Positions 1-61,764 of a stretch of 64,000 nt of DNA are shown here, one piece after another. Origin of the DNA: Octopus vulgaris. Lineage: Eukaryota. The position numbers and the translations under genes were made by a program. The number at the start of each line of letters is the position of its first letter. The first letter of the stretch is position 1. Location: positions 2,356,001-2,420,000 of the forward strand of contig OX597830.1 in NCBI GenBank assembly GCA_951406725.2, given 5' to 3'. A model generated the notes under the pieces. The model did not search any database. It was not told the DNA's origin and saw only the letters and a list, made by a program, of their open reading frames with translations.

Positions 1-2190
1 TGACAGACAGCAGCATATTCCCTAATGAACAGAAAGGATGTAAACGTGGATCCTACGGTTGTAAAGATCAACTACTCATCAATAAGATGATCTTAGAAGA
101 TTGTCACAAACGACACAAAAACTTATCAATAGCCTGGATAGACTATAAAAAGGCTTTTGATAGCCTACCACATAGCTGGATTAAGAAATGCCTAGAAATG
201 TATAAGATAGCACCTACTCTGTGAAACTTTTTGTCTGTAAGTATGAGATTATGGAGAACCACATCAACTTTGAACAGTGACAATGAATCTCTAAATGCTA
301 GAGATGTAAAAATCTCATGTGGCATTTTCCAGGGTGACTCACTATCACCACTCCTCTTCTGTTTAGCCTTAATACCTCTCTCAAAACTGCTCAATGACAC
401 GCAGTACGGGTATAAAATGTTTGATAAAAATATAAATCATCTCATTTACATGGATGATTTAAAGCTCGTTGCAAAAAATGACCAACAACTCAAGGGCTTA
501 CTAGCGATTGTTAAACAATTCAGTGATGACATCAGAATGAAATTTGGCCTCGATAAATGTGCAAAAACTACCTTTATCAAAGGAAAAATGACAGAAACAT
601 CTAACGTTAACCTTGACCAGCAGCACGTCATAAAAGAGTTAGACTCAGCGGAGAGCTACAAGTACCTAGGGATAATTGAAGGAGAGGGAATAAGGCATTC
701 AGTGATGAAGGAAAGGATCAGGAGAGAATGTTATCGCAGAGTAAGAGCAATACTCAAGACAGAGCTGAATGCGAGAAACAGGATCGAAGCAATCAATGCA
801 TTAGCCATACCAGTTGTGACTTACAGTTTCAATATCGTTAACTGGTCATTTACTGAAATATGTAATCTTGACAGAAAAATACGAAAACTGTTGACAATGC
901 ATAGAATGCACCACCATAAGGCAGATACATAACGACTTTATCTGCCAAGAAAAGAGGGAGGCCGTGGACATTTACAACTGGCAATAACAATGAAGATTGC
1001 TACAATTGGCCTAGACACCTACCTGAAAAACTCTGAGGACTGGATGTTAAAACATGTCTCAAAACATGAAAACAAGAAAGCATCATACTCAGTAACAAAA
1101 CAGGCAAAGGAATATCTTTGTGAATTCCGAATACAACAAATTTCAGAATTAGAGATAGACATACAAGAAACAGGCACAGAAAAGGCTAAGCGCATGAAAA
1201 CCCGTGCTAAATCTGCGGCCTTAGATATTCTGAATGATAAATGGCAAGAAAAACCTCTCTATGGCAAATACCCAAAGAGAGCAAATAATGCAGATGTTGA
1301 CAAAGCCCTGACCCATCAATGGCTAATGGCCTCTGGCTTAAAATCTGAAACAGAGGGGTTTATCATAGCAGCTCAAGATCAATGCCTACCAACAAGAAAC
1401 TACCAGGCCAACATATTAAAGATCAGAAGCAGTCCAACGTGTCATGTATGCCAGCAATAAAATGAAACCATTGACCATGTGGTCTCCAAGTGCAGTCTTC
1501 TAGCGCCTACAGAGTATCTCAACAGACACAATAGAGCTGCACAATATATTCACTGGGTAATCTGCAAAAACCTGGATTTGCCCCATGAAAAAAACTGGTG
1601 GGAACACAAACCACCCCCAGTGCTTGAAAATGACCACATCTCACCCCTCTGGAACTTCACCATTCAAACTGACAGAAAGATAGATGCAAATAGGCCAGAC
1701 ATCATATTGAAAGACTTCAAACAAAGAACATGCCTCCTCATTGATATGACTGTCCCAATCGATATAAACGTATCTGTCAAGACCTACCAAAAACTGAGCA
1801 AATATAAAGATCTTGAAATAGAAATCAGCAAAATGTGGAAGCTGAAGACTAAAACAATACCTGTTGGCTGATAGCTACCTAACTCAGATACCAGGAAACT
1901 CCAAAATGGCAGAAATTCAAAAGATAGTGCTCATGGGAACTGCTCATATCCTACGCAAAATACTTTCTATGTAATCTCAAGGTTTAAAACAAACATAATT
2001 TCCGGTTTAAAAAAAAAAAAAATTTTTTTTTCTTTTAGACATTCATTAGTACAACACCAAAAACTCCCCCCCCAATATATGGCAGACTAGGCATAACAAC
2101 AACATGAACTTCCAACCTGTTGTCTCTTGAGGTCTCTGGGTGAGACTTGGAGCCAACTTGTACAAATATAAAGCAAAAGTCAAACATAGA
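1..2190 (+). mobile_element. R4/Dong-clade RLE non-LTR retrotransposon, family A (5' part outside window, disrupted)
   Basis: RT motifs [21 protein letters not shown] and YMDDLK; CCHC knuckle CHVC..ETIDHVVSKC; RLE motif RPDII..LIDMTVP..KLSKY. In-frame stops near 221, 930 and 1458, and a deletion near 1865. ORF ends TAA 1972-1974, then 3' UTR and (AAT)n tail. Confidence 0.93.
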
Positions 2191-2240
2191 ATAATAATAA
2201 TAATAATGATAATAATAATAATAATAATAATAATGATAAT
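2191..2240 (+). repeat. (AAT)n tract: tail/target shared by Dong family A and family B copy 1
   Basis: Direct reading; lies between the family A 3' UTR and the family B 5' end. Confidence 0.9.
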
Positions 2241-5200
2241 AAACAAAATAAAGCGATTTTTCACGAACAAACGCAAAAAAGAGCAAATTGGTCACTGAAT
2301 TTTTAACGTCACTGAACAGTTATGTCCGGAAACATGTCCACCAAAAGAAATAGAGGCGAATTTCGATCTATAAGTCTCATGCGAGTTCGATATGGCCAAT
2401 ATATTAATTCGGAGAATTCAGAAGCGGTGTCTTGACAAAAAGTTGACCCTGTACAAACAGTCCCTTCTTCTAACGTCACCGTTACAGTTGACTCTGAAAA
2501 AATGGACCCCTCTGATGTCGCCGTCAATCATTTAATGAAAACAAGCCAAAAATCATGCCGGATCGGTCATCGCCAGGGCCAACAAGGACCGCGTTACCCA
2601 GTAGGGAACCAGACTGGGGTCAAAAAGTTTGCTGCTGGAACAAACTCTCAAAAAGACGATCTACCAGGTGACCAGGACCAGAATACTTCTAACTCTGAAC
2701 TTGTAGTGACACCACCAAAAACACCACCTAAAGCAAAACGTATAAAATGGACCAGAGAGGACTATAGAGATGTGTTGAAAGCTTTTTATACAGCCCAACT
2801 AAACCCAAACAATAACCTCAGTGTACAAACATACATCTCATGGAGAAATTCAGTAGGCAACGAAGTACATAGATATATAGATGCAAATAAATTAAGTAAT
2901 GTATGCAGAGATATAATTAGAAACAAAAGACTAACTGACGCTGAAATTGACCAAATTAGGACACTAATAGCTCATGGTAGACCAAAAGAAAACAGCAACA
3001 ATGTAGACGAAATAGGTAACAGTAGCACAGAAGCCAGTGTACAAGCGGCAAATCAACTTCCCAATAGGGAAGTTAAACAAAGAATAGCGAAGACGAGAGA
3101 TTTGAAAAAAGAGGAGAACGTAGACCTTCCTCAAGAAAACCAAAATAGATATGGCATAGAATTTGAGGTGAAAAATAGAGAAAAGATTATGGAAGCAAAA
3201 GTGGACGTTATGAGACAACTCGGCAAGATTGAGCTCACTGACATGGTTAATAGAGAACCGCTACCAAAGTTTTCAAACGGCACAAGAAATAACAACACAA
3301 TCATGACATATAACGTTGCCCTAGGACAGATCTTAAGAAATAAGGGGAATGATTTGACAACCTTAAATAATCTCATTTATTCCACTGCTAAAGTAGTAAC
3401 TACCCAACTAGGTATTAAGATGACAAAGAAAAAGGCCAGGCATGTCAATGAACCTCCTAAGTGGAAAGTAGCGATACAAAAAGAGATTGAATCTCTGCGG
3501 GCGGATGTTTCAGTTCTCGATGAGCTTGCTAGAGGAGTGAATATTAAGCCGAGAAAAGCTAGAAAAATCAAACAAAAATAAAAAATCAAAGATCTCATAA
3601 ACCTCCCTGCAACCAAGGAACTGTTGAAACAACGGATACAGTTGAAAGTCCAACGGCTTAGAAGGTATGACAAAAGAAACAAATTTTATCGACAAAATAG
3701 ATTTTTTAAGACAGATGCAAAGAAATTTTATAGGGAAATTGGCAAACATAAAATACACATAGAAGATCCACCTAAGATTGAGGAAGTGGAGGAGTTCTGG
3801 AAGAAGGTATGGAGCAATGAAAAAGAGTTTAATGCTGAGGCTGACTGGATAGAACGTGAGAAAGAGAGACTGGATGAACTTGAAGAACAGAAATGGGAAG
3901 CAATAGGAATAGAGGAGCTAAGGTGTGTCCTTAGGAAGGCTCATAAATGGAAAACCCCAGGACTGGATTGGATCCCTAACTTCTGGCTGAATTGTTTGAC
4001 AGAGGTACCCGAAAATCTCGCTGCATCTCTGTCTGATGTCATTCAGAACCCAGAGCAAATACCTGCTTGGCTGACTGAAGGAACCACCTACCTATTACCT
4101 AAAACTGAAGACACAAAATACCCAAAGAATTACCGGCTAATAACATGTCTCAACACCACCTACAAAATCCTCACATCCATAATAACAGAGAGAATGTACG
4201 CTTTCCTTGAATAAAGCTCTATCCTTCCACAAGCTCAAAAAGGTTGTAAAAGAAACTCTTATGGGTGCAAAGACCAATTGCTCATAAACAGAATGATTGT
4301 AGAGAATTGCCGGAGCAAAAACATAAACCTGAGTATGGCATGGATAGACTACAGGAAAGCGTTTGACAGTGTCCCACATAAATGGATACTCAAGGCCCTT
4401 GAGATATACAAGATCTCTCCTGTCGTCTCAAAATTCTTACAGAATAGCATGACCATGTGGAACACACGTCTCTTTCTAAGCCATAGTAATGGGATGAGCC
4501 AGTCCAACAGCATCAACATCAAACGAGGCATCTTTCAAGGTGACTCCCTCTCTCCATTACTTTTTTGCATGGCACTGATCCCACTCTCAAAAGAATTGGA
4601 TAGTACCAGATATGGGTACAAAGTTTTTAGTAAATCAAGAAACCACCTTTTCTATATGGACGACCTAAAACTGTTTGCCAGGAATGACCAAGAGCTAGAA
4701 GGGCTGCTAACAACTGTTAAAGAGTTTAGCAACGATATCGGAATGGATTTTGGCCTTGATAAGTGTGCTAAAGCAACTTTTGTAAGAGGCAATCTCAGGC
4801 AAACAGATTCTGTTAAATTAGATATTGACACTACCATCAAGGAACTTGACCCACAAGAAAGTTACAAATACCTAGGAATCAACGAAGGAGATGGTATACA
4901 TTATGCTACTATGAAGGAAAAAATAAGAAAGGAATACTATAGGAGAATAAGGCTTGTACTGAAGACTGAACTCAACTCCAAAAATTGCATTGAGGCCATT
5001 AATACCCTGGCACTTCCAGTAGTCCAGTACAGTTTTAACATCATTAACTGGAACCTTACGGAACTCCAACGCTTGGACAGGAAGACAAGTAAATTACTGA
5101 CATTCAAGAACACCCTAAGGCAGATGTAGACTGCCTGTACCTACCTAGAAGCAGCGGGGGGAGAGGAATGATGCAATTAAAGCTGTGCTATAAGACCTCC

Positions 5201-6353
5201 ACTGTAGGAATGAACAGGTACCTATCTAATACAAAGGACTGGATGCGGCGACTTGTGTGCGAACACGAAAGCAGCAAAAAGCTGCAATTCATTGTCAAGG
5301 AAGCTTATAAGTTCGAAAGGGAACTAGACATTAACCTTGAATCAGATGAAGAGCCGGAAACCACTACTACCAAGCAAGCAAAGCGAATCAAGCAGACTGC
5401 AAAAAAGAACAGGCAGAATCAAATTGAGAGGCAGTGGAGCCAGAATCCCCTGCATGGACAATATATTCTCCGAAGCCAAAATGCTGATGTAGACCAAGCA
5501 ACAACCCATCAGTGGCTGAAGAGTTCAGGATTGAAAGCAGAGACTGAAGGCTTCATACTGGCAGCACAAGATCAAAGTTTGTTTACCAGAAATTACCAGG
5601 CTAGCGTTCTCCGAAATTGTACTGACCCTAAATGCAGATTCTGCAACACATTTGATGAAACAATAGACCATCTCGTTTCGGGATGTCCTGTGCTGACACC
5701 AAACAAATACAAAAATCGCCACGATAGGGTAGGACAGTATATACATTGGAAGATATGTAAACACTACAAATTCGGCACTCCTGCTAACTGGTATGAACAC
5801 CATCCTCAGCCAGTTGTTGAAAGTAAAAATGTCACCATCCTCTGGGATTTTCCAGTCAACACTGACAGAACGATCAAGGCTAATCGACCAGACATAATTG
5901 TTAAAGACAGGGAAGAAAATACCTGCAGACTAATAGAGGTAAGCGTCCCCACTGATAACAATATATCTGTAAAGGAATTTGACAAACTTAGTAAATATAA
6001 GGACCTGGAAATCGAAATACAAAAGATGTGGAATCTTAAAACAAAAACTGTTCCTGTTATTGTAGATGCCCTAGGTATGATAAAAAAGGGATGTCAGAAA
6101 CACTTAGACAATATCCCTGGAGAACCATGTCTCAAGGAAATCCAAAAGATTGTGCTAACAAGTACTGCCCAAATCCTTAGAAAAACCCTATCAATGTAAA
6201 TGTTTGTGTTTGTATTACATGGAAATATTTCTCTACTTCCCCTCCCCAAGCTTTCAGCTATATTTCAACAACTCTTAACCTTCACTTGCCCTAGGGCGCT
6301 GGGTGTGCCCCGGCAACTGATTGCATCAAACATGCAGATTAAAAGTAAATGAC
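2241..6353 (+). mobile_element. R4/Dong-clade RLE retrotransposon, family B copy 1 (apparently full length, defective)
   Basis: N-terminal Myb-like region (RIKWTREDY..W..KLSN), RT (QGDSLSP, YMDDLK), CCHC (CRFC..ETIDHLVSGC) and RLE (RPDII..KLSKY). Bounded by (AAT)n on both sides; same 5' and 3' ends as copy 2. Confidence 0.95.
2502..6199 (+). pseudogene. Dong B copy 1 polyprotein ORF, broken by two stops and a frameshift
   Basis: ORF track pieces 2502-3581, 3624-4214, 4278-5129 and 5168-6199. TAA at 3579-3581 and 4212-4214; frameshift near 5108 just before HPKADVD. Confidence 0.93.
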
Positions 6354-6417
<64 letters not shown>

Positions 6418-6441
6418 GTAATAATAATAATAATAATGGTA

Positions 6442-6479
<38 letters not shown>

Positions 6480-6530
6480 CATAATAATAATAATAATAAT
6501 GGTAATGGTAATATTAACGACAACATTAAT
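6354..6530 (+). repeat. Imperfect (AAT)n microsatellite (Dong tail/target)
   Basis: Direct reading. Confidence 0.95.
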
Positions 6531-13780: not shown

Positions 13781-14761
13781 GTGAAATATGGGCCGTGACT
13801 GCTGAGGACATGCGTAAGCTCGCGAGAAATGAAGCCAGTATGCTCCGATGGATGTGTAATGTCAGTGTGCATGCTCGACAGAGCGTTAGTACCCTGAGAG
13901 AAATGTTGGACCTAAGGAGCATCAGTTGTGGTGTGCAAGAGAGACGATTGCGCTGGTATGGTCATGTGGCGAGAATGGATGAAGATAGGTGTGTGAAAAA
14001 GTGCCAATCCCTAGCAGTGGAGGGAACCCGTGGAAGAGGTAGACCCAGGAAAACTTGGGACGAGGTAGTGAAGCATGACCTTCGAACTTTAGGTCTTACT
14101 GAGGAAATGTCCAGCGACCGAGACCTTTGGAAATATGCTGTGCTTGAAAAGACCAGGCAGGACAAGTGAGTCCAGCCCACTTATGCATGCCTTTCCTCCC
14201 TTGGACACACAAAGACCTGTTGAGGCAAGCGAAGTCGATATCGAACCTCATCCGACGACAGGCACCTATGCCTACCCCACTTTGCCTGCGAAGATCTGTT
14301 GGGGCAAGTGAAATCGGAATCGAAATTGAACCAATCCTCTGACTGGCACCCGGCAGATGCCAGGACCCCTGGACTGGAGATACGTAAAAAGCACTATCCG
14401 AATTGTGGCCGATGCCAGCGCCGCCTCGACTGGCTTCCGTGTCGGTGGCACGTAAAAAGCACCATCCGAATCGTGGCCGAAGCCAGTGCCGCCTTGACTG
14501 GCTTCCGTGCAGGTGGCACGTAAAATGCACCAATCCGACCGTGGCCGATGCCAGCCTCGCCTGGCACCAGTGCAGGTGGCACGTAAAAAGCACTCACTAC
14601 ACTCACGGAGTGGTTGGCGTTACGAAGGGCATCCAGCTGTAGAAACATTGCCAGATAAGACCGGAGCCTGGTGCAGCCTTCTGACTTCCCAGATCCCCAG
14701 TCGAACCATCCAACCCATGCTAGCATGGGGAATGGACGTTAAACGATGATGATGATGATGA

Positions 14762-34107: not shown

Positions 34108-34789
34108 TAATAATAATAATGATAATAATGTATACAGTGAATTTATTCGTCCTAGGTGGTGCGAAGACACTCAACAAGAAATGGAAACAAAATTGAGAGA
34201 AGACAAACCCATAATGATGATGATGATGACAACAGCAACAACAACAATAATGAAAAAAATGTCCACAAACATGATCACGATGAGATGATGATAGGAATGA
34301 TGATGGTGATGATGATAGGAATGATGATGATGATGATGAAGACGACAACGATATTGATGATAGAATTACTTTCTTTTCACCAGGAACTCAGCCAATTTTG
34401 TATAAATGAAGGTGTGACAAATTTAATGATCCCATCTTATTATCGTCGCTATTTTGTCTAATGAGTTTCTATGTTTTTGTGTAGGTGTGTATGATTGTAA
34501 TAATTATTTATAACAAAACAGATAGAATATGGATGGCAATTCAAATTAATACACTCGTCAATGTTGTCTGGTGGTTGTAATTTGTGATGTGACATCGGTC
34601 ATCGCTTGTTACTAAAAGAATTCTGGTTCATGCACACATTCACATTCTTCTCTTGTACGCGCGCACACACATACACACATATACTCATACAGAGTTGTAA
34701 CACTGTTTGATTTTTCTTTTCAGCATTGAATGTTCACCATCACACTTCCATTACACACACACACACACACAAGCATTCACAGTTGTCTA

Positions 34790-38060: not shown

Positions 38061-38461
38061 GGAAATTTCGAACCTGGGTTCTCATTTCCGACATATTTTT
38101 CAATGTTATCATTACTATTATTATTATTATTATTATCATTATTCAGGTCACTGCTTGGAATCAAACTCAGAATCCTAGGGTTAGTATCCTGCGCTCTTAA
38201 CCAATATACCATATGCCTACGAGCATATGGCGTAGTGGTTAAGAGTGCAAGCTATTAACCCTAAGATTCGGAGTTTGATTCCAAGCAGTGACCTGAATAA
38301 TAATAATAATAATGATAGTAATGATAACATTGAAAAATATCTTAGGAATGAGAACTCAGGTTCAAAATTTCTCCAAGACATCTAATGGAGGCTAGAGGGT
38401 ATATCAGCCAAAACAAGATGAGGACAAATATCCATCAAATGTAAATAATGTAAATAATGTA
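38061..38461. mobile_element. Fold-back insertion of a tRNA-headed unit homologous to the 3' end of the Penelope at 45668-47119
   Basis: Arms 38061-38217 and 38223-38372 are inverted about the tRNA 5' end. A box TGGCGTAGTGG, B-box-like AGTTTGATTCC. Decayed hammerhead CTAATGGA-ggct..agcc-AAAA at 38382-38413. Tail matches 47060-47105. Confidence 0.88.
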
Positions 38462-46879: not shown

Positions 46880-46900
46880 GCCCTAAAATTCACTCCTTAA

Positions 46901-47119
46901 TTGCCCACGGGCATATGGCATAGTGGTTAAGAGCGTGGACTATTAACCCCAAGATTCCGAGTTCAATTCCAAACCTGAATAATAATAATAATAACATTGA
47001 AAAATACCTTAGGAATGAGAACCTAGGTTCGAAATTTCCAAAAGACAGGAGGATATAACAACAAACAAGATGAAGACAAATATCCACCAAATGTAAATAA
47101 TGTACATAATTCCTCATCT
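46901..47119 (+). mobile_element. tRNA-derived head plus (AAT)n and pLTR-like tail directly downstream of the Penelope ORF
   Basis: A box TGGCATAGTGG at 46916-46926, B box AGTTCAATTCC at ~46960-46970. Body homologous to 38221-38461; the hammerhead region is largely deleted in this copy. Confidence 0.8.
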
Positions 47120-48204: not shown

Positions 48205-50790
48205 ATCATCATCATCATCATCGTGTAGCGTCCGCTTTCCATGCTCGCATGGGTTGGACGGTGCAACTGGGGTCTGGGAAGCCAGAAGGCTGCACCAGGC
48301 CCAGTCTGATCTGGCAATGTTTTTATGGCTGGATGCCCTTCCTAACGCCAACCACTCCATGAGTGTAGTGGGTGCTTTTTACGTGCCACCGGCACAGGTG
48401 CCAGACAAGGCTGGCAAACGGACACGAACGGATTGTGCTTTTTACGTGCCACTGGCACGGAGGCCAGGCGAGGCTAGCAAACAGCCACGATCGGAAGGTG
48501 CTTTTCACGTGCCACTGGCACTGGTATCACGGCTACAATTTCTATTCATGTTGATCGATTTTGATTTTTGGTTTTTGATTTTGATTTTGATTTTCACTTG
48601 CCTCAACAGGTCTTCACAAGTAGAGTTTTGTGTCCCAAGAAGGAAAGGTATGCATAAGTGGACTGAGGCCATGGGTTATGGTCTCACTTGTCCTGCTGGG
48701 TCTTCTCACGCACAGCATACTTCCAAAGGTCTTGGTCTCTAGTCATTTCCTCGGTGAGACCTAAAGTTCGAAGGTCGTGCTTCACCACCTCGTCCAAGGT
48801 TTTCCTGGGTCTACCTCTTCCACAGGTTCCCTCAACAGCTAGGGTGTGGCACTTTTTCAGACAACTATTTTCATCCATTCTTGCCACATGGCCATACCAG
48901 TGCAAACATCTCTCTTGCACACCGCAACTGATGCTTCTTAGGTCCAACTTCTCTCTCAAGGTACTTACACTCTGTCGAGTATGAACACTGACATTACACA
49001 TCCATCGGAGCATACTGGCTTCATTTCTCGCGAGCTTACACATATCCTCAGCAGTCACGGCCCATGTTTCACTGCCGTGTAACATGGCTGTTCGTACACA
49101 TGCGTCATACAGTCTGCCTTTTACTCTGAGCGAGAGGCCTTTAGTCACCAGCAGAGTTAAGAGCTCTCTGAACTTTACCCAAGCTATTCTTACTCTAGCA
49201 GTTACAGTTTCAACATGCCCGCCCTCGCAACTGATGAGGTCACCTAAGTAATGGAAGCTATCAACTATTTCTAGTTTTTCTCCCTGGAATGTGGTGGAAG
49301 TTGCTCTCTGCGCATTTTCAGTGTTTATTGCTCCTGAGCATCTGCCACAGACAAAAACTATCTTCCTAGTTAGCCTTCCCTTGATGTTGCTGCACCTCTT
49401 ATGTGTCCATAGCTTACACTTGGTGCATCTTATAGAGTTTCTACCTACGCCTTTCCTACAAATTGAGCAAGGCCATCTACCTGAAGGCGTTTGTGACTTG
49501 TCTACCTTCCTACATATTAGGACTTTGGTTTTAGCTAGGTTGACTCTAAGGCCCTTCGATTCTAATCCTTGCTTCCACACCTGAAACTTCTCCTCCAGTT
49601 CTGATAGTGACTCAGTAATTAGAGCAAGGTCATCAGCATAGAGGAGCTCCCAGGGGCATCCTGTCTTGCTTTCTTCCGTTATTGCCTGGAGGACTACGAT
49701 AAATAGGAGGGGGCTGAGGACTGAACCTTGGTTGACCCCTACCTCTACCTGGAATTCTTCACTGTATTCGTTGCCAACTTTGACTTTACTAGCAGCATCC
49801 CTGTACATGGCTCACACAGCTCTCACTAACCATTTATCTATCCCTAGTTTCCTCATTGACCACCAGATAAGGGATCGGGGGACCCTGTCGAAGGCTTTCT
49901 CCATGTCAATGAAAGCCAGGTACAGGGGCTTATCTTTGGCTAGGTATTTCTCCTGCAGCTGTCTTACCAGGAATATAGCATCAGTGGTGCTTTTCCCTGG
50001 CACGAATCCAAACTGCATTTCATCTAAACTAACTCTCTCCCTAATCAGTTGGGATATGACTCTTTCCGTAACATTCATTACCTGATCCAACAGCTTGATA
50101 CCTCTGCAATTACTTGTATCTAGGGCGTCACCTTTACCTTTGTAGCAGTTGACTATTATGCTACTACACCAGTCATTGGGTATGACTCCTTCGTGTATCA
50201 CCTGGTTAACTATACGGGTGACTAGGCTATAGCCGACACTACCAGATACTTTGAGCATCTCTGCAGTAATTCCTGATGAGCCTGGGCTTTCCCTGTTTTC
50301 ATGCTTCTAATTGCCTTAACTACCAAGGAACTGTCAACTCGGATAGCTGGTCCCTCTGTTGGGTCGACATTCAGCAGACTCTCTTTATCCCATTCATTTT
50401 CTTTATTCAGCAACCTTTCATAGTGGCGTCTCCAAACCTCTCTCTTTGCATCCTCATTTAGCGCAAGTGAACCATCATCCATGCGAACACATTTCTCTCC
50501 TACCACATCACGATTCTCTCTCACACACTGTCTTGCAACGTGAAATACCTCAAGTCTTTGGTCCTCATGGCACAGAACATTGGCAAATTTTTTTTATCTG
50601 CTTCCCCTCTGGCTAAATAAACCTGTCTCCTAGCTTCTCTTTTGGCAGTCTGAAACAATTCCCTGCTGTCCCCATTTTTCCAGTCCTTCCAAGCCTGTCT
50701 CTTTTCTCTAATAGCCCTGTCTACAACATTGTTCCACCACCACGTTATTCTAGGTCGAGAGAGGACTTTGCACCAGCCACAGATCTGGTC
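48205..50790 (-). mobile_element. 5'-truncated RTE LINE with PHD-like finger in the RT region
   Basis: ORF pieces 50222-50524, 49812-50258 and 48684-49808: QFGFVPGKSTTDAIF, FIDMEKAFDRV, QGSVLSP, YADDL, C4HC3 insert, GRGRPRKT. 3' UTR repeats and (GAT)n tail. Confidence 0.95.
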
Positions 50791-50804: not shown

Positions 50805-51072
50805 ATGTATATATGGCTAAATATCCCCTTTAATTGTGCGAACTCGACGAATGTGTACAGTAGACTTAAATCTATACTGGAAAAAAATTTCCCAGCCTCC
50901 CATAAATATGATGAAATAATTTCTAGGAGATCAGTAAGAATTTCCTATTCCACTCTCTCAAACATGGCTACCATAATAGCTGGACTTAATAGTAAAAAGA
51001 TTAAATTAGCCAGGAGTAGAATGAATAGTAACAATAATGATAGTAATAATAATTGTAATAATAGCATTAACA

Positions 51073-51137
<65 letters not shown>
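50805..51137 (+). mobile_element. Naiad-like PLE, left part (RT thumb C-terminus and start of poly-Asn linker)
   Basis: IWLNIPF..ILEKNFPASHKY..ISRRSVRISYSTLSNMATII..NSK resembles the WFNPPF..HFP..KISYS..NM thumb motif; continues after the Dong insertion. Confidence 0.8.
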
Positions 51138-51140
<3 letters not shown>

Positions 51141-54100
51141 CAAAAACAAAGCTATTTTTCACGAACAAACGCAAAAAAGAGCAAATTGGTCACTGAATTT
51201 TTAACGTCACTGAACAGTTATGTCCAGAAACATGTCCACCAAAAGAAATAGAGGCGAATTTTGATCTGTAAGTCTCATGCGAATTCGAGATGACCAATAT
51301 ATTAATTCAGAGAATTCTGAAGCGGTGTCTTGACAAAATGTTGACCCTGTACAAACAGTCCCTTCTTCTAACGTCACTGTCACAGTTGACTCTGACAAAA
51401 TGGACCCCTCTGATGTCGCCGTCAATCATTTAATGAAAACAAGCCAAAAATCATGCCGGATCAGTCATCGCCCGGGACAACAAGGAACGCGATACACAGT
51501 AGGGAACCAGACTGGGGTCGAAAAGTTTGCTGCTGGAACAAACTCTCAAAAAGACGATCTACCAGGTGACCAGGACCAGAATACTTCTAACTCTGGACTT
51601 GTAGTGACACCACCAAAAATACCACCTAAAGCAAAATGTATAAAATGGACCAGAGAGGACTATAGAGATGTGTTGAAAGCTTTTTATACAGCCCAACTAA
51701 ACCCAAACAATAACCTCAGTGTACAAGCATACATCTCATGGAGAAATTCAGTAGGCAACGAAGTACGTAGATATATAGATGCAAATAAATTAAGTAATGT
51801 ACGCAGAGATATAATTAGAAACAAAAGACTAACTGACGCTGAAATTGACCAAATTAGGACACTAATAGCTCATGGTAGACCAAAAGAAAACAGCAACAAT
51901 GTAGACGAAATAGGTAACAGTAGCACAGAAGCCAGTGTACAAGCGACAAATCAACTTCCCAATAGGGAAGTTAAACAAAGAATAGCGAAGACGAGAGATT
52001 TGAAAAAAGAGGAGAACGTAGACCTTCCTCAAGAAAACCAAAATAGATATGGCATAGAATTTGAGGTGAAAAATAGAGAAAAGATTATGGAAGCAAAAGT
52101 GGACGTTATGAGACAACTCAGCAAGATTGAGCTCACTGACATGGTTAATAGAGAACCGCTACCAAAGTTTTCAAACGGCACAAGAAATAACAACACAATC
52201 ATGACATATAACGTTGCCCTAGGACAGATCTTAAGAAATAAGGGGAATGATTTGACAACCTTAAATAATCTCATTTATTCCACTGCTAAAGTAGTAACTA
52301 CCCAACTAGGTATTAAGATGACAAAGAAAAAGGCCAGGCATGTCAATGAACCTCCTAAGTGGAAAGTAGCGATACAAAAAGAGATTGAATCTCTGCGGGC
52401 GGATGTTTCAGTTCTCGATGAGCTTGCTAGAGGAGTGAATATTAAGCCGAGAAAAGCTAGAAATATCAAGCAAAAATATAAAATCAAAGATCTCATAAAC
52501 CTCCCTGCAACTAAGGAACTGTTGAAACAATGGATACAGTTGAAAGTCCAACGGCTTAGAAGGTATGACAAAAGAAACAAATTTTATCGACAAAATAGAT
52601 TTTTTAAGACAGATGCAAAGAAATTTTATAGGGAAATTGGCAAACATAAAATACACATAGAAGATCCACCTAAGATTGAGGAAGTGGAGGAGTTCTGGAA
52701 GAAGGTATGGAGCAATGAAAAAGAGTTTAATGCTGAGGCTGACTGGATAGAACGTGAGAAAGAGAGACTGGATGAACTTGAAGAACAGAAATGGGAAGCA
52801 ATAGGAATAGAGGAGCTAAGGTGTGTCCTTAGGAAGGCTCATAAATGGAAAACCCCAGGACTGGATTGGATCCCTAACTTCTGGCTGAATTGTTTGACAG
52901 AGGTACCCGAAAATCTCGCTGCATCTCTCTCTGATGTCATTCAGAACCCAGAGCAAATACCTGCTTGGCTGACTGAAGGAACCACCTACCTATTACCTAA
53001 AACTGAAGACACAAAATACCCAAAGAATTACCGGCTAATAACATGTCTCAACACCACCTACAAAATCCTCACATCCATAATAACAGAGAGAATGTACGCT
53101 TTCCTTGAATAAAACTCTATCCTTCCACAAGCTCAAAAAGGTTGTAAAAGAAACTCTTATGGGTGCAAAGACCAATTGCTCATAAACAGAATGATTGTAG
53201 AGAATTGCCGGAGCAAAAACATAAACCTGAGTATGGCATGGATAGACTACAGGAAAGCGTTTGACAGTGTCCCACATAAATGGATACTCAAGGCCCTTGA
53301 GATATACAAGATCTCTCCTGTCGTCTCAAAATTCTTACAGAATAGCATGACCATGTGGAACACACGTCTCTTTCTAAGCCATAGTAATGGGATGAGCCAG
53401 TCCAACAGCATCAACATCAAACGAGGCATCTTTCAAGGTGACTCCCTCTCTCCATTACTTTTTTGCATGGCACTGATCCCACTCTCAAAAGAATTGGATA
53501 GTACCAGATATGGGTACAAAGTTTTTAGTAAATCAAGAAACCACCTTTTCTATATGGACGACCTAAAGCTGTTTGCCAGGAATGACCAAGAGCTAGAAGG
53601 GCTGCTAACAACTGTTAAAGAGTTTAGCAACGATATCGGAATGGATTTTGGCCTTGATAAGTGTGCTAAAGCCACTTTTGTAAGAGGCAATCTCAGGCAA
53701 ACAGATTCTGTTAAATTAGATATTGACACTACCATCAAGGAACTTGACCCACAAGAAAGTTACAAATACCTAGGAATCAACGAAGGAGATGGTATAGATC
53801 ATGCTACTATGAAGGAAAAAATAAGAAAGGAATACTATAGGAGAATAAGGCTTGTACTGAAGACTGAACTCAACTCCAAACATTGCATTGAGGCCATTAA
53901 TACCCTGGCACTTCCAGTAGTCCAGTACAGTTTTAACATCATTAACTGGAACCTTACGGAACTCCAACGCTTGGACAGGAAGACAAGAAAATTACTGACA
54001 TCCAAGAACACCCTAAGGCAGATGTAGACCGCCTGTACCTACCTAGAAGCAGCGGGGGGAGAGGAATGATGCAATTAGAGCTGTGCTATAAGACCTCCAC

Positions 54101-55250
54101 TGTAGGAATGAACAGGTACCTATCTAATACAAAGGACTGGATGCTGCGACTTGTGTGCGAACACGAAAGCAGCAAAAAGCTGCAATTCATTGTCAAGGAA
54201 GCTTATAAGTTCGAAAGGGAACTAGACATTAACCTTGAATCAGATGAAGAGCCGGAAACCACTACTACCAAGCAAGCAAAGCGAATCAAGCAGACTGCAA
54301 AAAAGAACAGGCAGAATCAAATTGAGAGGCAGTGGAGCCAGAATCCCCTGCATGGACAATATATTCTCCGAAGCCAAAATGTTGATGTAGACCAAGCAAC
54401 AACCCATCAGTGGCTGAAGAGTTCAGGATTGAAAGCAGAGACTGAAGGCTTCATAATGGCAGCACAAGATCAAAGCTTGTTTACCAGAAATTATAAGGCT
54501 AGCGTTCTCCGAAACGGTACTGACCCTAAATGCAGATTCTGCGACACATTTGATGAAACAATAGACCATCTCGTTTCGGGATGTCCTGTGCTGACACCAA
54601 ACAAATACAAAAATCGCCACGATAGGGTAGGACAGTATATACATTGGAAGATATGTAAACACTACAAATTCGGCACTCCTGCTAACTGGTATGAACACCA
54701 TCCTCAGCCAGTTGTTGAAAGTAAAAATGTCACCATCCTCTGGGATTTTCCAGTCAACACTGACAGAACGATCAAGGCTAATCGACCAGACATAATTGTT
54801 AAAGACAGGGAAGAAAATACCTGCAGACTAATAGAGGTAAGCGTCCCCACTGATAACAATATATCTGTAAAGGAATTTGACAAACTTAGTAAATATAAGG
54901 ACCTGGAAATCGAAATACAAAAGATGGGGAATCTTAAAACAAAAACTGTTCCTGTTATTGTAGGTGCCCTAGGTATGATAAAAAAGGGATGTCAGAAACA
55001 CTTAGACAATATCCCTGGAGAACCATGTCTCAAGGAAATCCAAAAGATTGTGCTAACAAGTACTGCCCACATCCTTAGAAAAGCCCTATCAATGTAAATG
55101 TTTGTGTTTGTATTACATGGAGATATTTCTCTACTTCCCTTCCCAAGCTTTCAGCTATATTTCAACAACTCTTAACCTTCACTTGCCCTAGGGTGCTGGG
55201 TGTGCCCCGGCAAGTGATTGCATCAAACATGCAGATTAAAAGTAAATGAC
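51138..55250 (+). mobile_element. R4/Dong family B copy 2, inserted in the (AAT)n of the PLE
   Basis: Collinear with 2241-6353 at a constant offset of 48898 across the ORF; (AAT)n on both sides. Confidence 0.96.
51400..55097 (+). pseudogene. Dong B copy 2 polyprotein ORF (one stop, one frameshift)
   Basis: ORF pieces 51400-53112, 53176-54027 and 54066-55097; TAA at 53110-53112; frameshift near 54006. Confidence 0.93.
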
Positions 55251-55253
55251 AAC

Positions 55254-55296
<43 letters not shown>

Positions 55297-55299
55297 GTA

Positions 55300-55340
<41 letters not shown>

Positions 55341-55378
55341 TAGTAATGATAATAATAATAATAATAATAGTAACAATA

Positions 55379-55450
<72 letters not shown>

Positions 55451-56970
55451 GTTATAATAAAAATAATATTAATAATGATGATGACAATAATAATAATTAT
55501 AATAATAACAACATTGATGTAAATAGTGATAATAACAATACCAATAATATAGGTAGTATAGATAAACGTATGGTAGGTGATGATGGTGAGGATGGATTAA
55601 TAACTAGTTACCCTAATTTGCATAACAACGTGATTACTAATAATGAAAGTAATATTAATACTAATAATAACTTAAATAACAGTAATGTAAGTGAACTGTC
55701 CTTAAATAATTCCAGTACCGGACACTATCTTCCCAGTTGTAATTGTAGGATTAGATCAAAATGTCCGGTATCTGGTCGTTGTTCGGTCCAAAACGTAATT
55801 CATAAATGCACGATAATAACTTCTAGCAATAGCTTTCTTTATTTCGGATGTTCGGTGGATCTTAAAAGACGTCTTAACAATCATTTTTTCTCTTTTGGGC
55901 TCAAACATAAAGCAGGTTGCACAACACTATCTAGCAAAATTTGGGAACTAAAAACAAAGAATATAGATTTCAACCTAAAATGGGATATAGTTAGAAGGGC
56001 GCAACCTTATAGAAATAGTAGGGATGGTTGTCAACCTTGTTCTATGGAAACTTATGAAATTTTAAAACATCAGAGTAATACAAATCTGTTGAATAACCAT
56101 CTGGAGTTGGGAGCATCTTGTATACATTGCACAACCCAAACGTTTAAATACTTTAAATAATTCTGTGAGTATTCCTATATTTTTCAAATTTTAATTCTTT
56201 ATAATCGAATAAGAAGAAATATACTATACTATACTAGCTTTCAATTTAACATTCATAGATGACTAAAAAAACATCACTGCAAACCTGAAATTGAAATGTT
56301 TTTCTAAAATTAATCTAGCTTTAAAATTAATAAGTCTTTCCCCCAGTTATAAAATACTATGCCTACTCATAATAATAAGTGATAGGTTTTTTTCCCCTCT
56401 TTTTCTCTAAATTATACTCTCTGTGAATGGGATTAAAACCATTTGACATTGACCTAGTTTCTCTCACCAAATAGCAGTAATTGGCATTTATTAGTGGCAA
56501 TTGCTGTCTTCAACATGAATTCCTTTTATGGAGTCCTGAAACCTCCTTTACCCCATTTCTACAATTAAAAAATCTTTATTGCTTCTATCCTTACAGCAGT
56601 TAGGAACAACCATATCTTAGTCAGTGAGTGGAAGGATTTCACTACCTCATATGTTCTTAAAATTTAAATCCACATCTTTGTCTTTATATCTACCTTCTCT
56701 ATACTGATTTGAACATTTTTGTATTAATGGAAAACCTCTATAATTGGCTGATGAGTGCTCAGCATTTTAAAACTGTTGTAATACTTACAACATTTAATAA
56801 AATGATGTAGTACGAAACGATCGTACCAAATTACCGTAGTCATTCTTGTTGCTTATTTTGATTATAATCACCCCACGGATTTTTATGGATAACACCATAC
56901 AAAATTCTGGTGCATCTGGTGCATCTAAATTAAGTACCATATTCATTTGAATATAAATTTTTGCTGAACT
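55300..56970 (+). mobile_element. Naiad-like PLE, right part (Asn-rich linker, CxCx5C, GIY-YIG, pLTR)
   Basis: CNCRIRSKCP..GRC, VIH..LYFG, RLNNH..SF, LSSKIWELK, CQPCxxE, LLN..CIH. Stop at 56160; 3' UTR with hammerhead; ends at (TA)n. Confidence 0.88.
56741..56833 (+). ncRNA. Type I hammerhead ribozyme with extended stem II (Naiad-like pLTR)
   Basis: taattgg-CTGATGA-gtgct...agtac-GAAA-cgatcg-TA-ccaaatta. Stem II extends via catttta/taaaatg and tgttgtaa/ttacaaca; palindromic stem III ACGATCGT. Confidence 0.88.
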
Positions 56971-60020: not shown

Positions 60021-61764
60021 CAAATAAGTAACCAGTGGTAGCTGTACTGAGAAGAAGAGTTGACCTGTAACAAATGAAAAGGGGCCAGAGCTGTCCTAAG
60101 GCTTGGGGACACTGGGAGGTCCTCTACAAGGCGTTGGTTTTTGTGCTTTACTTTTTATGAGTGGGGTCTGACTGCATTGTTCTGTTGGGGACCCTGTAAA
60201 TGTGCTAAAAGGGTCCTGTATCAACTATTAAGTAAACGCTTTTGTCATATGTTCAAAACCTCTAAGAATTTTGAGCCTGTCTAACCATATCTGAGTGTGT
60301 GTACACAGATTTATATACATATGTGTGTGTATATGTGTGCATGCACACATACTTGTGCATATGTACAAACAGTCATATGTTTAGAGATACATTTATATAC
60401 ATACATTCATATACATGTATTTATAAATGTGTACACACACACACACATACACACACACATGCTGTGTATAGATGTATTTATACACCCTATTTTCATGTGT
60501 GTATGCATGTATATGAGTGTATGTATGTGTATAAATTAATAAAAGTTTTATCCTATCAGAAAGGATTGAAAATTTCTTATTAGAATTTATATTTTATTTG
60601 AAACAATGAAATTGCTTGGCCCATCAACGTTTCGAAAACTTTCCAGCTTCATGTCAAGGAGGAAATGGTTGTCAGTGGCATTTGTTGCAATTTACGGACA
60701 CAATTATAACAGCACTGCTACTCTGCCATTAATGACATTCTTATGAACACATCTGAGATTTTTCCTTCAAACATTTAATGATCAGGAAATAGTTTGTCCC
60801 TGAAGGGGACACCTTGCATGTGTTGCCACAATATACCAACTCTGTTTTAATGTTGGTATTATATTTTGCTATAAATATACCTTCAATAAATAATCTTGGA
60901 GTGTTTGTCTTGAGAAATTCTTTATGAAATACTTTCATTATTATTTCTTTTTCTCTTTAGTTCTGTATTAAATAATAAAATGTGTCACAATGGCTTTGTG
61001 TGAAATATACATTGGCATTCTGTGAGAACATGTGATTTTTGGGGGGTTTTTTTCATAATTATTTTGGACTTTTAGAACGAAATTTTGATATGAAAGGATG
61101 ATGCTGAAAATAGCTTCATCTTCCATTTTGGTATCCAATATAGTTTAATTAGAGATTTATATAACTCAATGTTTAAATTCAGAAACAAGTAATAACATAA
61201 ATATAAAACAGAGCCAAGAGTGACCACCACCAACTAATAATGTCTTATGTGCAATGAATTTCCGCCAAGTTATATAGACATGGTGACAAATAATGTCCAC
61301 AGGTGTGTATATGCAGTAATGAATGTACATAGGTGTATATATGCCAGGCAGCAATGAATGTCTTTCCAGATATGAGATATTGGTTATAAAATCACAACAC
61401 AGGAACAAAATTTAGATTCTACTTGACAAATGAAATTAAAAAAAAAACTATTGTAATTAATTGAACACAATTCTTGCCACTCAATCATGGATGTTAAAAT
61501 AGGTGAGGTGACAGAAAAGCAAAAACAAACAAATTGAACGAGGTAAATACAAATTATACAAGCTAAAACATATCTCACATACCTACATTCTATTTTTATC
61601 ATTTATTTACGAATTTTATTTGCAATTTTCTCATGTACAGGGAAAAAATGGGATGAACATCAAACGATGTGATTCTGTGAGAGAAAAGCACTATGGAATA
61701 AATGTGACCAAAAATCTCAGAAACAACACACAGCATTCACTGGAGTTGTTTTGGCATAAATATA

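Follow-up and report, generated by a model that had tools for sequence, protein, structure and literature searches.

Conservation of a covarying stem-loop close to the 3' ends of Dong-like retrotransposon families

Dong-like non-LTR retrotransposons carry a conserved, covarying stem-loop close to their 3' end, and it is found in families beyond the two that are present in the window (the whole 64-kb stretch of DNA that we analyzed). The motif is 37 nt long: a five-base loop caps a 6-bp inner stem, which is joined to an outer stem through a 3x1 internal loop (Y-N-A opposite C). A preliminary description of the window had noticed this hairpin in two families, and it proposed a covariance model and a test for covariation. 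We performed this check with a tree-based null model (similar to R-scape, but our own implementation and not R-scape itself) and found significant covariation: 7 of the 14 base pairs covary at E < 0.01 across 30 families. Also, a covariance model recovered the motif in 16 of 33 families that were held out when building it.

Results

Dong-like elements in the window

The window is AT-rich animal DNA with microsatellites throughout. It contains three copies of Dong-like elements: the 3' part of a family A element, whose 5' part lies beyond the edge of the window, and two copies of family B, which we call B1 and B2 (Table 1). The open reading frame (ORF) is broken in all three copies; in family A, it contains both stops and frameshifts. 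All three copies match the reverse transcriptase (RT) family PF00078. In the translation, we could read a CX2CX7HX4C motif and a PD..E..K-type stretch, while Pfam alone gave weak matches for the knuckle. Among solved structures, R2 proteins give the best matches to a profile of the full-length relatives (E = 2e-50), and the aligned part spans positions 445–1177 of 1,212. The conserved N-terminal block begins with KWT. We did not see a Cys-pair finger in it, and neither Pfam nor the profile search assigned the diverged Myb/SANT domain that is a feature of the clade.

R4/Dong clade members are described as having an RT, a restriction-like endonuclease, no N-terminal zinc finger, and (TAA)n as their target (PMC7998251, PMC3812793). 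We use the name Dong provisionally, on the basis of the domain layout and the target; our protein tree comprises unnamed relatives only. (AAT)n flanks B1 and B2 on both sides, family A ends in (AAT)n, and B1 appears to have inserted in the family A tail or in the target repeat. Given the (TAA)n targeting of the clade (PMC7998251, PMC3812793), the repeats on both sides of the B copies and the location of B1 in the tail of A are as expected. B1 is stacked head-to-tail on family A, and two of the outside loci (L013 and L077) likewise hold two adjacent Dong families. Because (AAT)n is followed by an identical first base of the element in B1 and B2, positions 2243 and 51140 are probably the true 5' ends, and B1 is probably full length. 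The two B copies are 98.4% identical at the nucleotide level. A and B are distinct families, at 63% amino acid identity over the RT and 52% over the C-terminal part; the preliminary description called them divergent.

The silkmoth Dong carries an HDV-like ribozyme at its 5' end (PMC3774820). When we scanned positions 1900–6500 of the window with Rfam, there was no such call at the 5' end of B1, and the scan gave no known family, with just two chance matches. Elsewhere in the window, the minus strand at 48684–50306 encodes an unrelated RT-bearing element with a weak match to a PHD finger. Tandem repeats with units of 63–68 nt and a common motif are found at 14382–14593 and 48371–48521; we take these to resemble the 3' ends of RTE-type elements.

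Table 1. Dong-like elements, their hairpins, and the adjoining repeats in the window
Feature	Position	Strand	Basis or detail
Family A ORF, 3' part (RT, CCHC knuckle, restriction-like endonuclease)	1–1974	+	RVT_1 match, translations, stop at 1972–1974
Family A 3' UTR	1975–2189	+	Sequence, ORF end, tail position
Family A hairpin	2120–2156	+	Folding, family-wide register, model match of 35.6 bits as a seed
(AAT)n array: family A tail and B1 5' flank	2190–2242	+	
Family B copy 1 (B1)	2243–6353	+	ORF broken, stop at 6197–6199
Family B hairpin, copy B1	6283–6319	+	Loop at 6300–6304; folding, model match
(AAT)n array 3' of B1	6354–6500	+	
(AAT)n array 5' of B2	51024–51139	+	
Family B copy 2 (B2)	51140–55253	+	ORF broken, stop at 55095–55097
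Family B hairpin, copy B2	55180–55216	+	Loop at 55197–55201; folding, model match
(AAT)n array 3' of B2	55254–55508	+	

Hairpins in the three copies

All three hairpins lie where the preliminary description had placed them (Table 1). In family A, the outer stem (2120–2127 with 2149–2156) has one U-C mismatch, the internal loop sets 2128–2130 opposite 2148, and the inner stem (2131–2136 with 2142–2147) encloses the loop at 2137–2141. In B2, the 8-bp outer stem is wholly paired, and the predicted structure has an energy of -21.5 kcal/mol and makes up 92% of the ensemble. B1 has a C at 6317 that disrupts one of the outer pairs; in all four of the public sequencing runs that we compared, the majority letter at this position is the G that B2 also has and that restores the pair. 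Among the rows listed for these runs, there were four variants within the family B hairpin (at 6308, 6310, 6316, and 6317), and all four retain or restore pairing. These variants in the copies of family B weakly favor the structure, as three of the four are common transitions.

The hairpin ends 33 nt before (AAT)n in A and 34 nt before it in B2, which agrees with the roughly 35 nt that had been reported. The observation that the remainder of the two UTRs does not align also held: aligning the whole UTRs of A and B gives an apparent match, but this is not significant once the hairpin is removed (equally good scores were obtained in 593 of 1,000 and 179 of 1,000 shuffles). Beyond the loop, A and B have in common AGG-N4-loop-N4'-CYYGG and the 3x1 internal loop, neither of which the preliminary description had pointed out, and both of these turn out to be constant across the clade.

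Taken alone, the hairpins in the window are weak evidence. Compared to shuffled sequences, the 37-mers have folding z scores of -1.6 (A), -1.9 (B1), and -2.6 (B2), and the family A hairpin with its flanks is unremarkable (z = -0.23). The case for more than chance comes from the related families.

Related families

Starting with an alignment of 79 C-terminal proteins, we collected 88 related loci, namely the best 80 of 384 confirmed metagenome loci and 8 loci from genome assemblies. We removed 21 of these (19 that stopped short of the end of the ORF and 2 that were too short). The remaining 67 outside loci and the three copies in the window were grouped into 45 families at 80% nucleotide identity. 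Identity between families ranges from 50% to 77%, with a median of 59%. For 33 of the 43 outside families, the sequence reaches the repeat tail; most of the other 10 are cut short or rearranged. The named protein relatives are from Clytia, Penaeus, Oculina, Asterias, and Acropora. We infer that the motif is spread across phyla, with the UTRs that we compared coming from other loci than those of the named relatives. Intact ORFs of full length do occur among Dong-like elements, for example P0122 and P0123.

A protein-level search for relatives in viral_contigs yielded none from 260 pattern matches. Searching viral_contigs with the motif pattern and AATAATAAT gave nine stretches, with a best score of 14.9 bits, but either the outer stem or the repeat tail is missing from them and we consider them to be chance matches.

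One of the loci (L085, with relatives L084 and L086) contains a distant element with a restriction-like endonuclease and 27–30% identity to family B. Upstream of this element, positions 1–413 are eukaryotic 18S rRNA (identified with Rfam), and sequence resembling the 3' end of 18S resumes directly behind the element, from about position 5050 onward (judged by eye). This element may target the end of the 18S rDNA. In the model search, the Dong hairpin was absent from its 3' end.

Tests of the structure across families

For a test that makes no use of base pairing, we searched for the eight letters that are common to A and B (AGG...CYYGG) and required at least 7 of the 8 to match. (The outside UTRs had been viewed beforehand, so this test was not fully blind.) There were 20 matches in 19 of the 43 outside families. 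At these matches, the four inner pairs, which the search had left free, were complementary in 70 of 80 cells, versus 95 of 276 cells in controls from ORFs and upstream sequence. All four pairs were formed in 15 of the 43 families, as compared to a mean of 0.10 families and a maximum of 2 in 200 dinucleotide shuffles. In the loops, which were not constrained by this search, the third base was G in 18 of 20 cases and the second base was a purine in 19 of 20. A 13-letter anchor that included UGGGU was also tried, but in several families it picked out incorrect sites, and we excluded it from the statistics.

Covariance model 1 was seeded with 13 sequences, which were the three copies in the window and one sequence from every second anchor-positive family (10 families). 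Across a search space of 333 kb (both strands), this model had 50 matches with E <= 0.22. Every one of these was at the 3' end of a Dong-like copy, with no false match; the three matches that lie away from a matched ORF represent additional or internally deleted Dong-like copies. If we consider only the held-out families that have a tail, then model 1 recovered 15 of 23. Covariance model 2, which was built from 31 sequences and run on 25 loci, adds L057, L061, and L040 with E <= 0.002. Together, the two models identify the motif in 28 of the 33 tail-bearing outside families (10 of the 28 were seeds).

The other five tail-bearing families were not clearly recovered. L082 and L028 are borderline (E = 0.3 and 0.46), which is level with two chance matches of equal score. 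L038 and L064 have a 6-bp stem and a fitting loop, as judged by eye only. From the L054 family, the motif is absent. We also rejected two candidates within the window: a fourth match of the loose pattern (at 60107) was matched by neither covariance model, and a match at 34144 (E of 0.4 to 2) lies behind an AAT array, not before it, and has an odd loop.

To quantify covariation, we considered 820 column pairs in the 30 families and compared a G-test with APC to 300 simulations in which the columns evolved independently along the protein tree. (These families take in L028, which is a weak match, and L078, which had earlier been dropped from the clustering as short.) The seven significant pairs include all four of the variable pairs of the inner stem. 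None of the unpaired column pairs reached E < 0.05 (the best had E = 0.063). When the analysis was limited to 18 held-out families, 4 of the 14 pairs had E < 0.05. Furthermore, in the 31 sequences, 84% of the cells were paired, versus 27–43% if the partners were slid, and there were 138 two-sided changes, versus 48 in shuffles.

The alignments used for covariation were selected by the models and hence lean towards the structure of the model, whereas the anchor-only test does not. This distinction affects the evidence about strand. In the model-selected inner stems, G-U outnumbers A-C by 20 to 1, but in the anchor-only set, the ratio is 3 to 3. Strand asymmetry is thus seen in the model-selected set only, without independent support from the anchor-only set. 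Overall, the motif is conserved down to about 38% protein identity.

Position relative to the tail and the stop codon

The near-constant spacing between the hairpin and the tail, which had been noticed in the two families, holds throughout the clade. Across 30 families, the distance from the end of the hairpin to the tail is 24–61 nt (median 37, standard deviation 9), while the distance from the end of the ORF to the hairpin varies from -8 to 196 nt (standard deviation 54). The length of the UTR follows the distance between the ORF and the hairpin (rho = 0.93) and not the distance between the hairpin and the tail (rho = -0.21). (These 30 omit L026, which has no directly following tail; for L029, which belongs to the same family, the spacing is 26 nt.) Because the spacing to the tail is nearly constant and the spacing to the ORF is variable, the hairpin is anchored to the 3' end of the RNA and not to the stop codon.

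In 9 of 33 families (L020, L033, L044, L049, L056, L057, L061, L063, and L078), the stop codon lies within the hairpin, and in three of these it lies in the bulge. In the remaining 24 families, the stop codon is upstream, by up to 195 nt.

In 10 of 31 families, the stretch that separates the main hairpin from the tail contains a second small hairpin, CCAGC...GCUG (L019, L024, L033, L044, L050, L056, L057, L061, L063, and L080). This pattern is absent from A and B; at the same location, B folds into a different 5-bp hairpin.

Conserved letters and the loop

The consensus of the loop is N-R-G-N-N. Position 3 is G and position 2 is a purine in all 30 families. Outside of the loop, 29 of the 30 families keep the A of the bulge, and 27 of 30 have G-C as the pair below the variable stem. 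The pair next to the bulge is G-C in 19 families, G-U in 9, and A-U in 2.

According to the preliminary description, the conserved signal included the UGGGU loop, closed by a C-G pair, and this view did not survive the comparison. UGGGU is the loop in just 3 of 30 families (A, B, and L033; in L010, UGGGU occurs inside a longer loop), and the most common loop is UGGUU, in five families; L002-type hairpins have UAGUA. The closing pair covaries: among 29 families, it is C-G in 12, A-U in 11, U-A in 3, G-C in 2, and U-G in 1. In the protein tree, A and B are closest to families with other loops, the difference between loops is hardly related to distance in the tree (rho = 0.06), and 20 of 378 pairs of families have the same loop (6 of 378 if the closing pair must match as well), so the UGGGU match between A and B carries little weight. 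The variable positions of the loop (1, 4, and 5) could provide family specificity or could be free to vary. We also considered convergence of the loops in families that reside together and rejected it as unsupported: loci with the same assembly prefix have different loops (L033 has UGGGU and L049 has CGGAG; L057 has GGGUU and L063 has GGGAC), with the caveat that one assembly may contain several organisms.

Discussion

A probable role in template recognition

The hairpin is probably the element by which the Dong protein recognizes its template. We favor this explanation because the build of the hairpin matches that of the 3' stem-loops that the proteins of L2 and R1 LINEs need. In the mechanism that we propose, the element's own protein would bind the hairpin as an RNA tag, and the bound hairpin would keep the nearby 3' end, made of UAA repeats, in position to be copied where a (TAA)n target has been nicked. 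On the model of L2, R1, and R2, the element's protein would sense the shape of the stem and the bulge in a general way and the G of the loop by base contact, and the spacer of 24–61 nt would allow the 3' end of the RNA to reach the active site of the RT.

In genomes, a recognition element usually shows itself through a passenger that has only the tail in common. We did not find any SINE or non-autonomous passenger with the Dong hairpin, either in the 64-kb window or among the 50 matches to model 1. This, together with the broken ORFs of all three copies in the window, weakens the argument for template recognition. The window does contain a tRNA-like SINE that ends in an AAT tail: two inverted copies lie head to head at 38117–38313, a further copy lies near 46900–46992, and the Dong hairpin is absent from them. 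Among the rows listed for the loose ends of family B, there was no junction at the 5' edge of the hairpin, and these rows are uninformative about SINEs.

Other explanations

The strongest competitor is that the hairpin governs the fate of the RNA, either by binding a host factor or by setting or protecting the 3' end of a transcript that lacks a poly(A) signal and continues into UAA repeats. The fixed distance from the 3' end and the conserved unpaired letters fit this explanation equally well, and a host partner that evolves slowly would easily explain the conservation to about 38% protein identity. We still consider it to be unlikely, as no Rfam family matched and as hairpins of the same build and position in L2 and R1 are bound by the protein of the element itself (PMC4176376, PMC5135761). 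A link to translation termination, which might aid the loading of a new protein onto its own RNA (cis-preference), would account for the nine families whose stop codon is inside the hairpin, including the three with the stop in the bulge. This is hard to believe, however, given that the stop codon of the 24 others is upstream and that its spacing is unconstrained.

Covariation by itself cannot separate RNA from DNA, and G-U was not above A-C in the anchor-only set, so we also considered a structure at the DNA level. A cruciform or a single-strand hairpin, in the integrated copy or in the first cDNA strand, could affect integration, pausing, or re-cutting beside the (TAA)n target. Such a structure is very improbable: the pair adjacent to the bulge is G-U in 9 of 30 families, which would be mismatches on the cDNA strand, and a cruciform would have no need of a one-sided bulge or of strand-specific letters in the loop. 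Finally, the resemblance between A and B might be due to chance or to how hairpins were selected. The folds in the window only marginally beat shuffled sequences, and the identity of the two loops may well be chance, given how many pairs of families share a loop (20 of 378) or a loop and closing pair (6 of 378). For the structure, this explanation is contradicted by the anchor-only, held-out, and tree-null tests, which makes it scarcely credible; it stands only for the exact match of UGGGU.

Mobilization across families

If template recognition is the role of the hairpin, then the question arises of whether one family's protein could mobilize the RNA of another, as the preliminary description suggested. 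Our results do not support cross-family mobilization. In the analogue that has been studied most closely, the two zebrafish ZfL2 families each recognize their own loop (PMC4176376), which argues against it unless Dong reads only the shared letters. In a bolder version, which we view as doubtful, the hairpin would be a portable 37-nt tag for the entire clade, read only by its shared letters (the purine-G of the loop, the A of the bulge, and the G-C pair), and co-resident families would mobilize each other. The tag, the spacer, and UAA repeats would then suffice for insertion at (TAA)n, and the likeness to L2 would reflect a mode of recognition that predates the split between restriction-like and APE elements.

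Novelty and implications

In the literature that we searched, in the parts of those papers that were available (including PMC4640811, PMC13580325, PMC5786205, and PMC3531059), we found no description of a 3' structure for R4/Dong. The older primary papers (the original Dong and R4 papers and Kojima & Fujiwara 2004), Repbase, the Fell 2025 survey, or supplements may contain one. The novelty lies in the particular motif and the depth of its conservation; a specialist would have expected some 3' structure, so the surprise is moderate. For R2, L2, and R1, it has been mapped how a non-LTR element chooses its RNA, and we found no such map for R4/Dong in the literature searched. Our analysis narrows the candidate to 37 nt with a few key letters: the third loop G, the loop purine, the bulge A, and one G-C pair. 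Because the covariance model flags the 3' ends of Dong elements, it can reveal truncated copies and Dong-dependent SINEs that are beyond the reach of protein searches. Should the tag prove portable, a gene-writing enzyme that targets microsatellites could use it as a compact handle.

Comparison with known systems

Stem-loops of this kind at the 3' end are known from L2, R1, RTE, Tad1, and plant L1 elements. Among the closest is that of UnaL2 and UnaSINE from the eel (L2 clade), which has about 36 nt, a five-base loop with a critical G, a stem that is split by a bulge, and a 3' end of short repeats next to it. In UnaL2, the GGAUA loop with its recognized G and the bulge hinge are both required (PMC1636434). 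The two systems differ in several respects: UnaL2 is of the APE type and the recognized G is at position 2 of its loop, whereas the invariant G of Dong is at position 3; the hinge of UnaL2 is a bulged C and a U-U mismatch, whereas Dong has a 3x1 loop with a conserved A; and the function of the UnaL2 hairpin is proven and its SINE partners are known, whereas the function of the Dong motif is a proposed one and no SINE partner was found in the sequence searched.

In zebrafish, the proteins of ZfL2-1 and ZfL2-2 bind the stem in a general manner but the loop in a specific one, and stem-loops do not work when exchanged, with each family recognizing only its own loop (PMC4176376). In those elements, the sequence of the stem is exchangeable, its structure is required, and the loop is informative; the covariation in Dong suggests likewise. 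In the consensus for LINE 3' hairpins, the bulge is 4–6 bp from the loop (PMC5135761). The bulge of Dong, at 6 bp, is within this consensus, and a covarying stem and conserved loop letters are found as well. The analogues of the same build that are proven are APE-type LINEs, which have an RNA-binding region between the endonuclease and the RT, and Dong does not have that layout.

A hairpin shared by L1 elements and a SINE in maize and sorghum was inferred in a similar way, and it too has a variable, covarying stem and conserved letters in the loop and flanks (PMC3747384). It differs from the Dong motif in belonging to the L1 clade, in its letters, and in being backed by a SINE that shares the tail. 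In Entamoeba, pairs of LINEs and SINEs share 3' ends, and one of these elements is listed as R4-1_ED (PMC3747384 Table 1); the common 3' end of EhLINE1 and EhSINE1 is about 70 bp (PMC2996970).

The named elements DongBm, DongAg, DongBg, and Darwinula Dong1/2 have an RT, a restriction-like endonuclease, no N-terminal zinc finger, and a (TAA)n target (PMC3812793, PMC7998251); the elements in the window resemble them in the RT, the endonuclease, and the target, and no Cys-pair finger was seen in the N-terminal block described above. For named Dong/R4 elements, the available parts of the papers describe protein domains, targets, and the 5' ribozyme, and no 3' RNA structure (PMC3812793, PMC7998251, PMC3774820). 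R2Bm also combines an RT with a restriction-like endonuclease, and its protein binds a core of about 40 nt within the 3' UTR (PMC10499050). The core of R2Bm consists of two long-range stems and a junction in a 248-nt UTR with diverging sequences, whereas the Dong motif is a single local hairpin that can be aligned across families.
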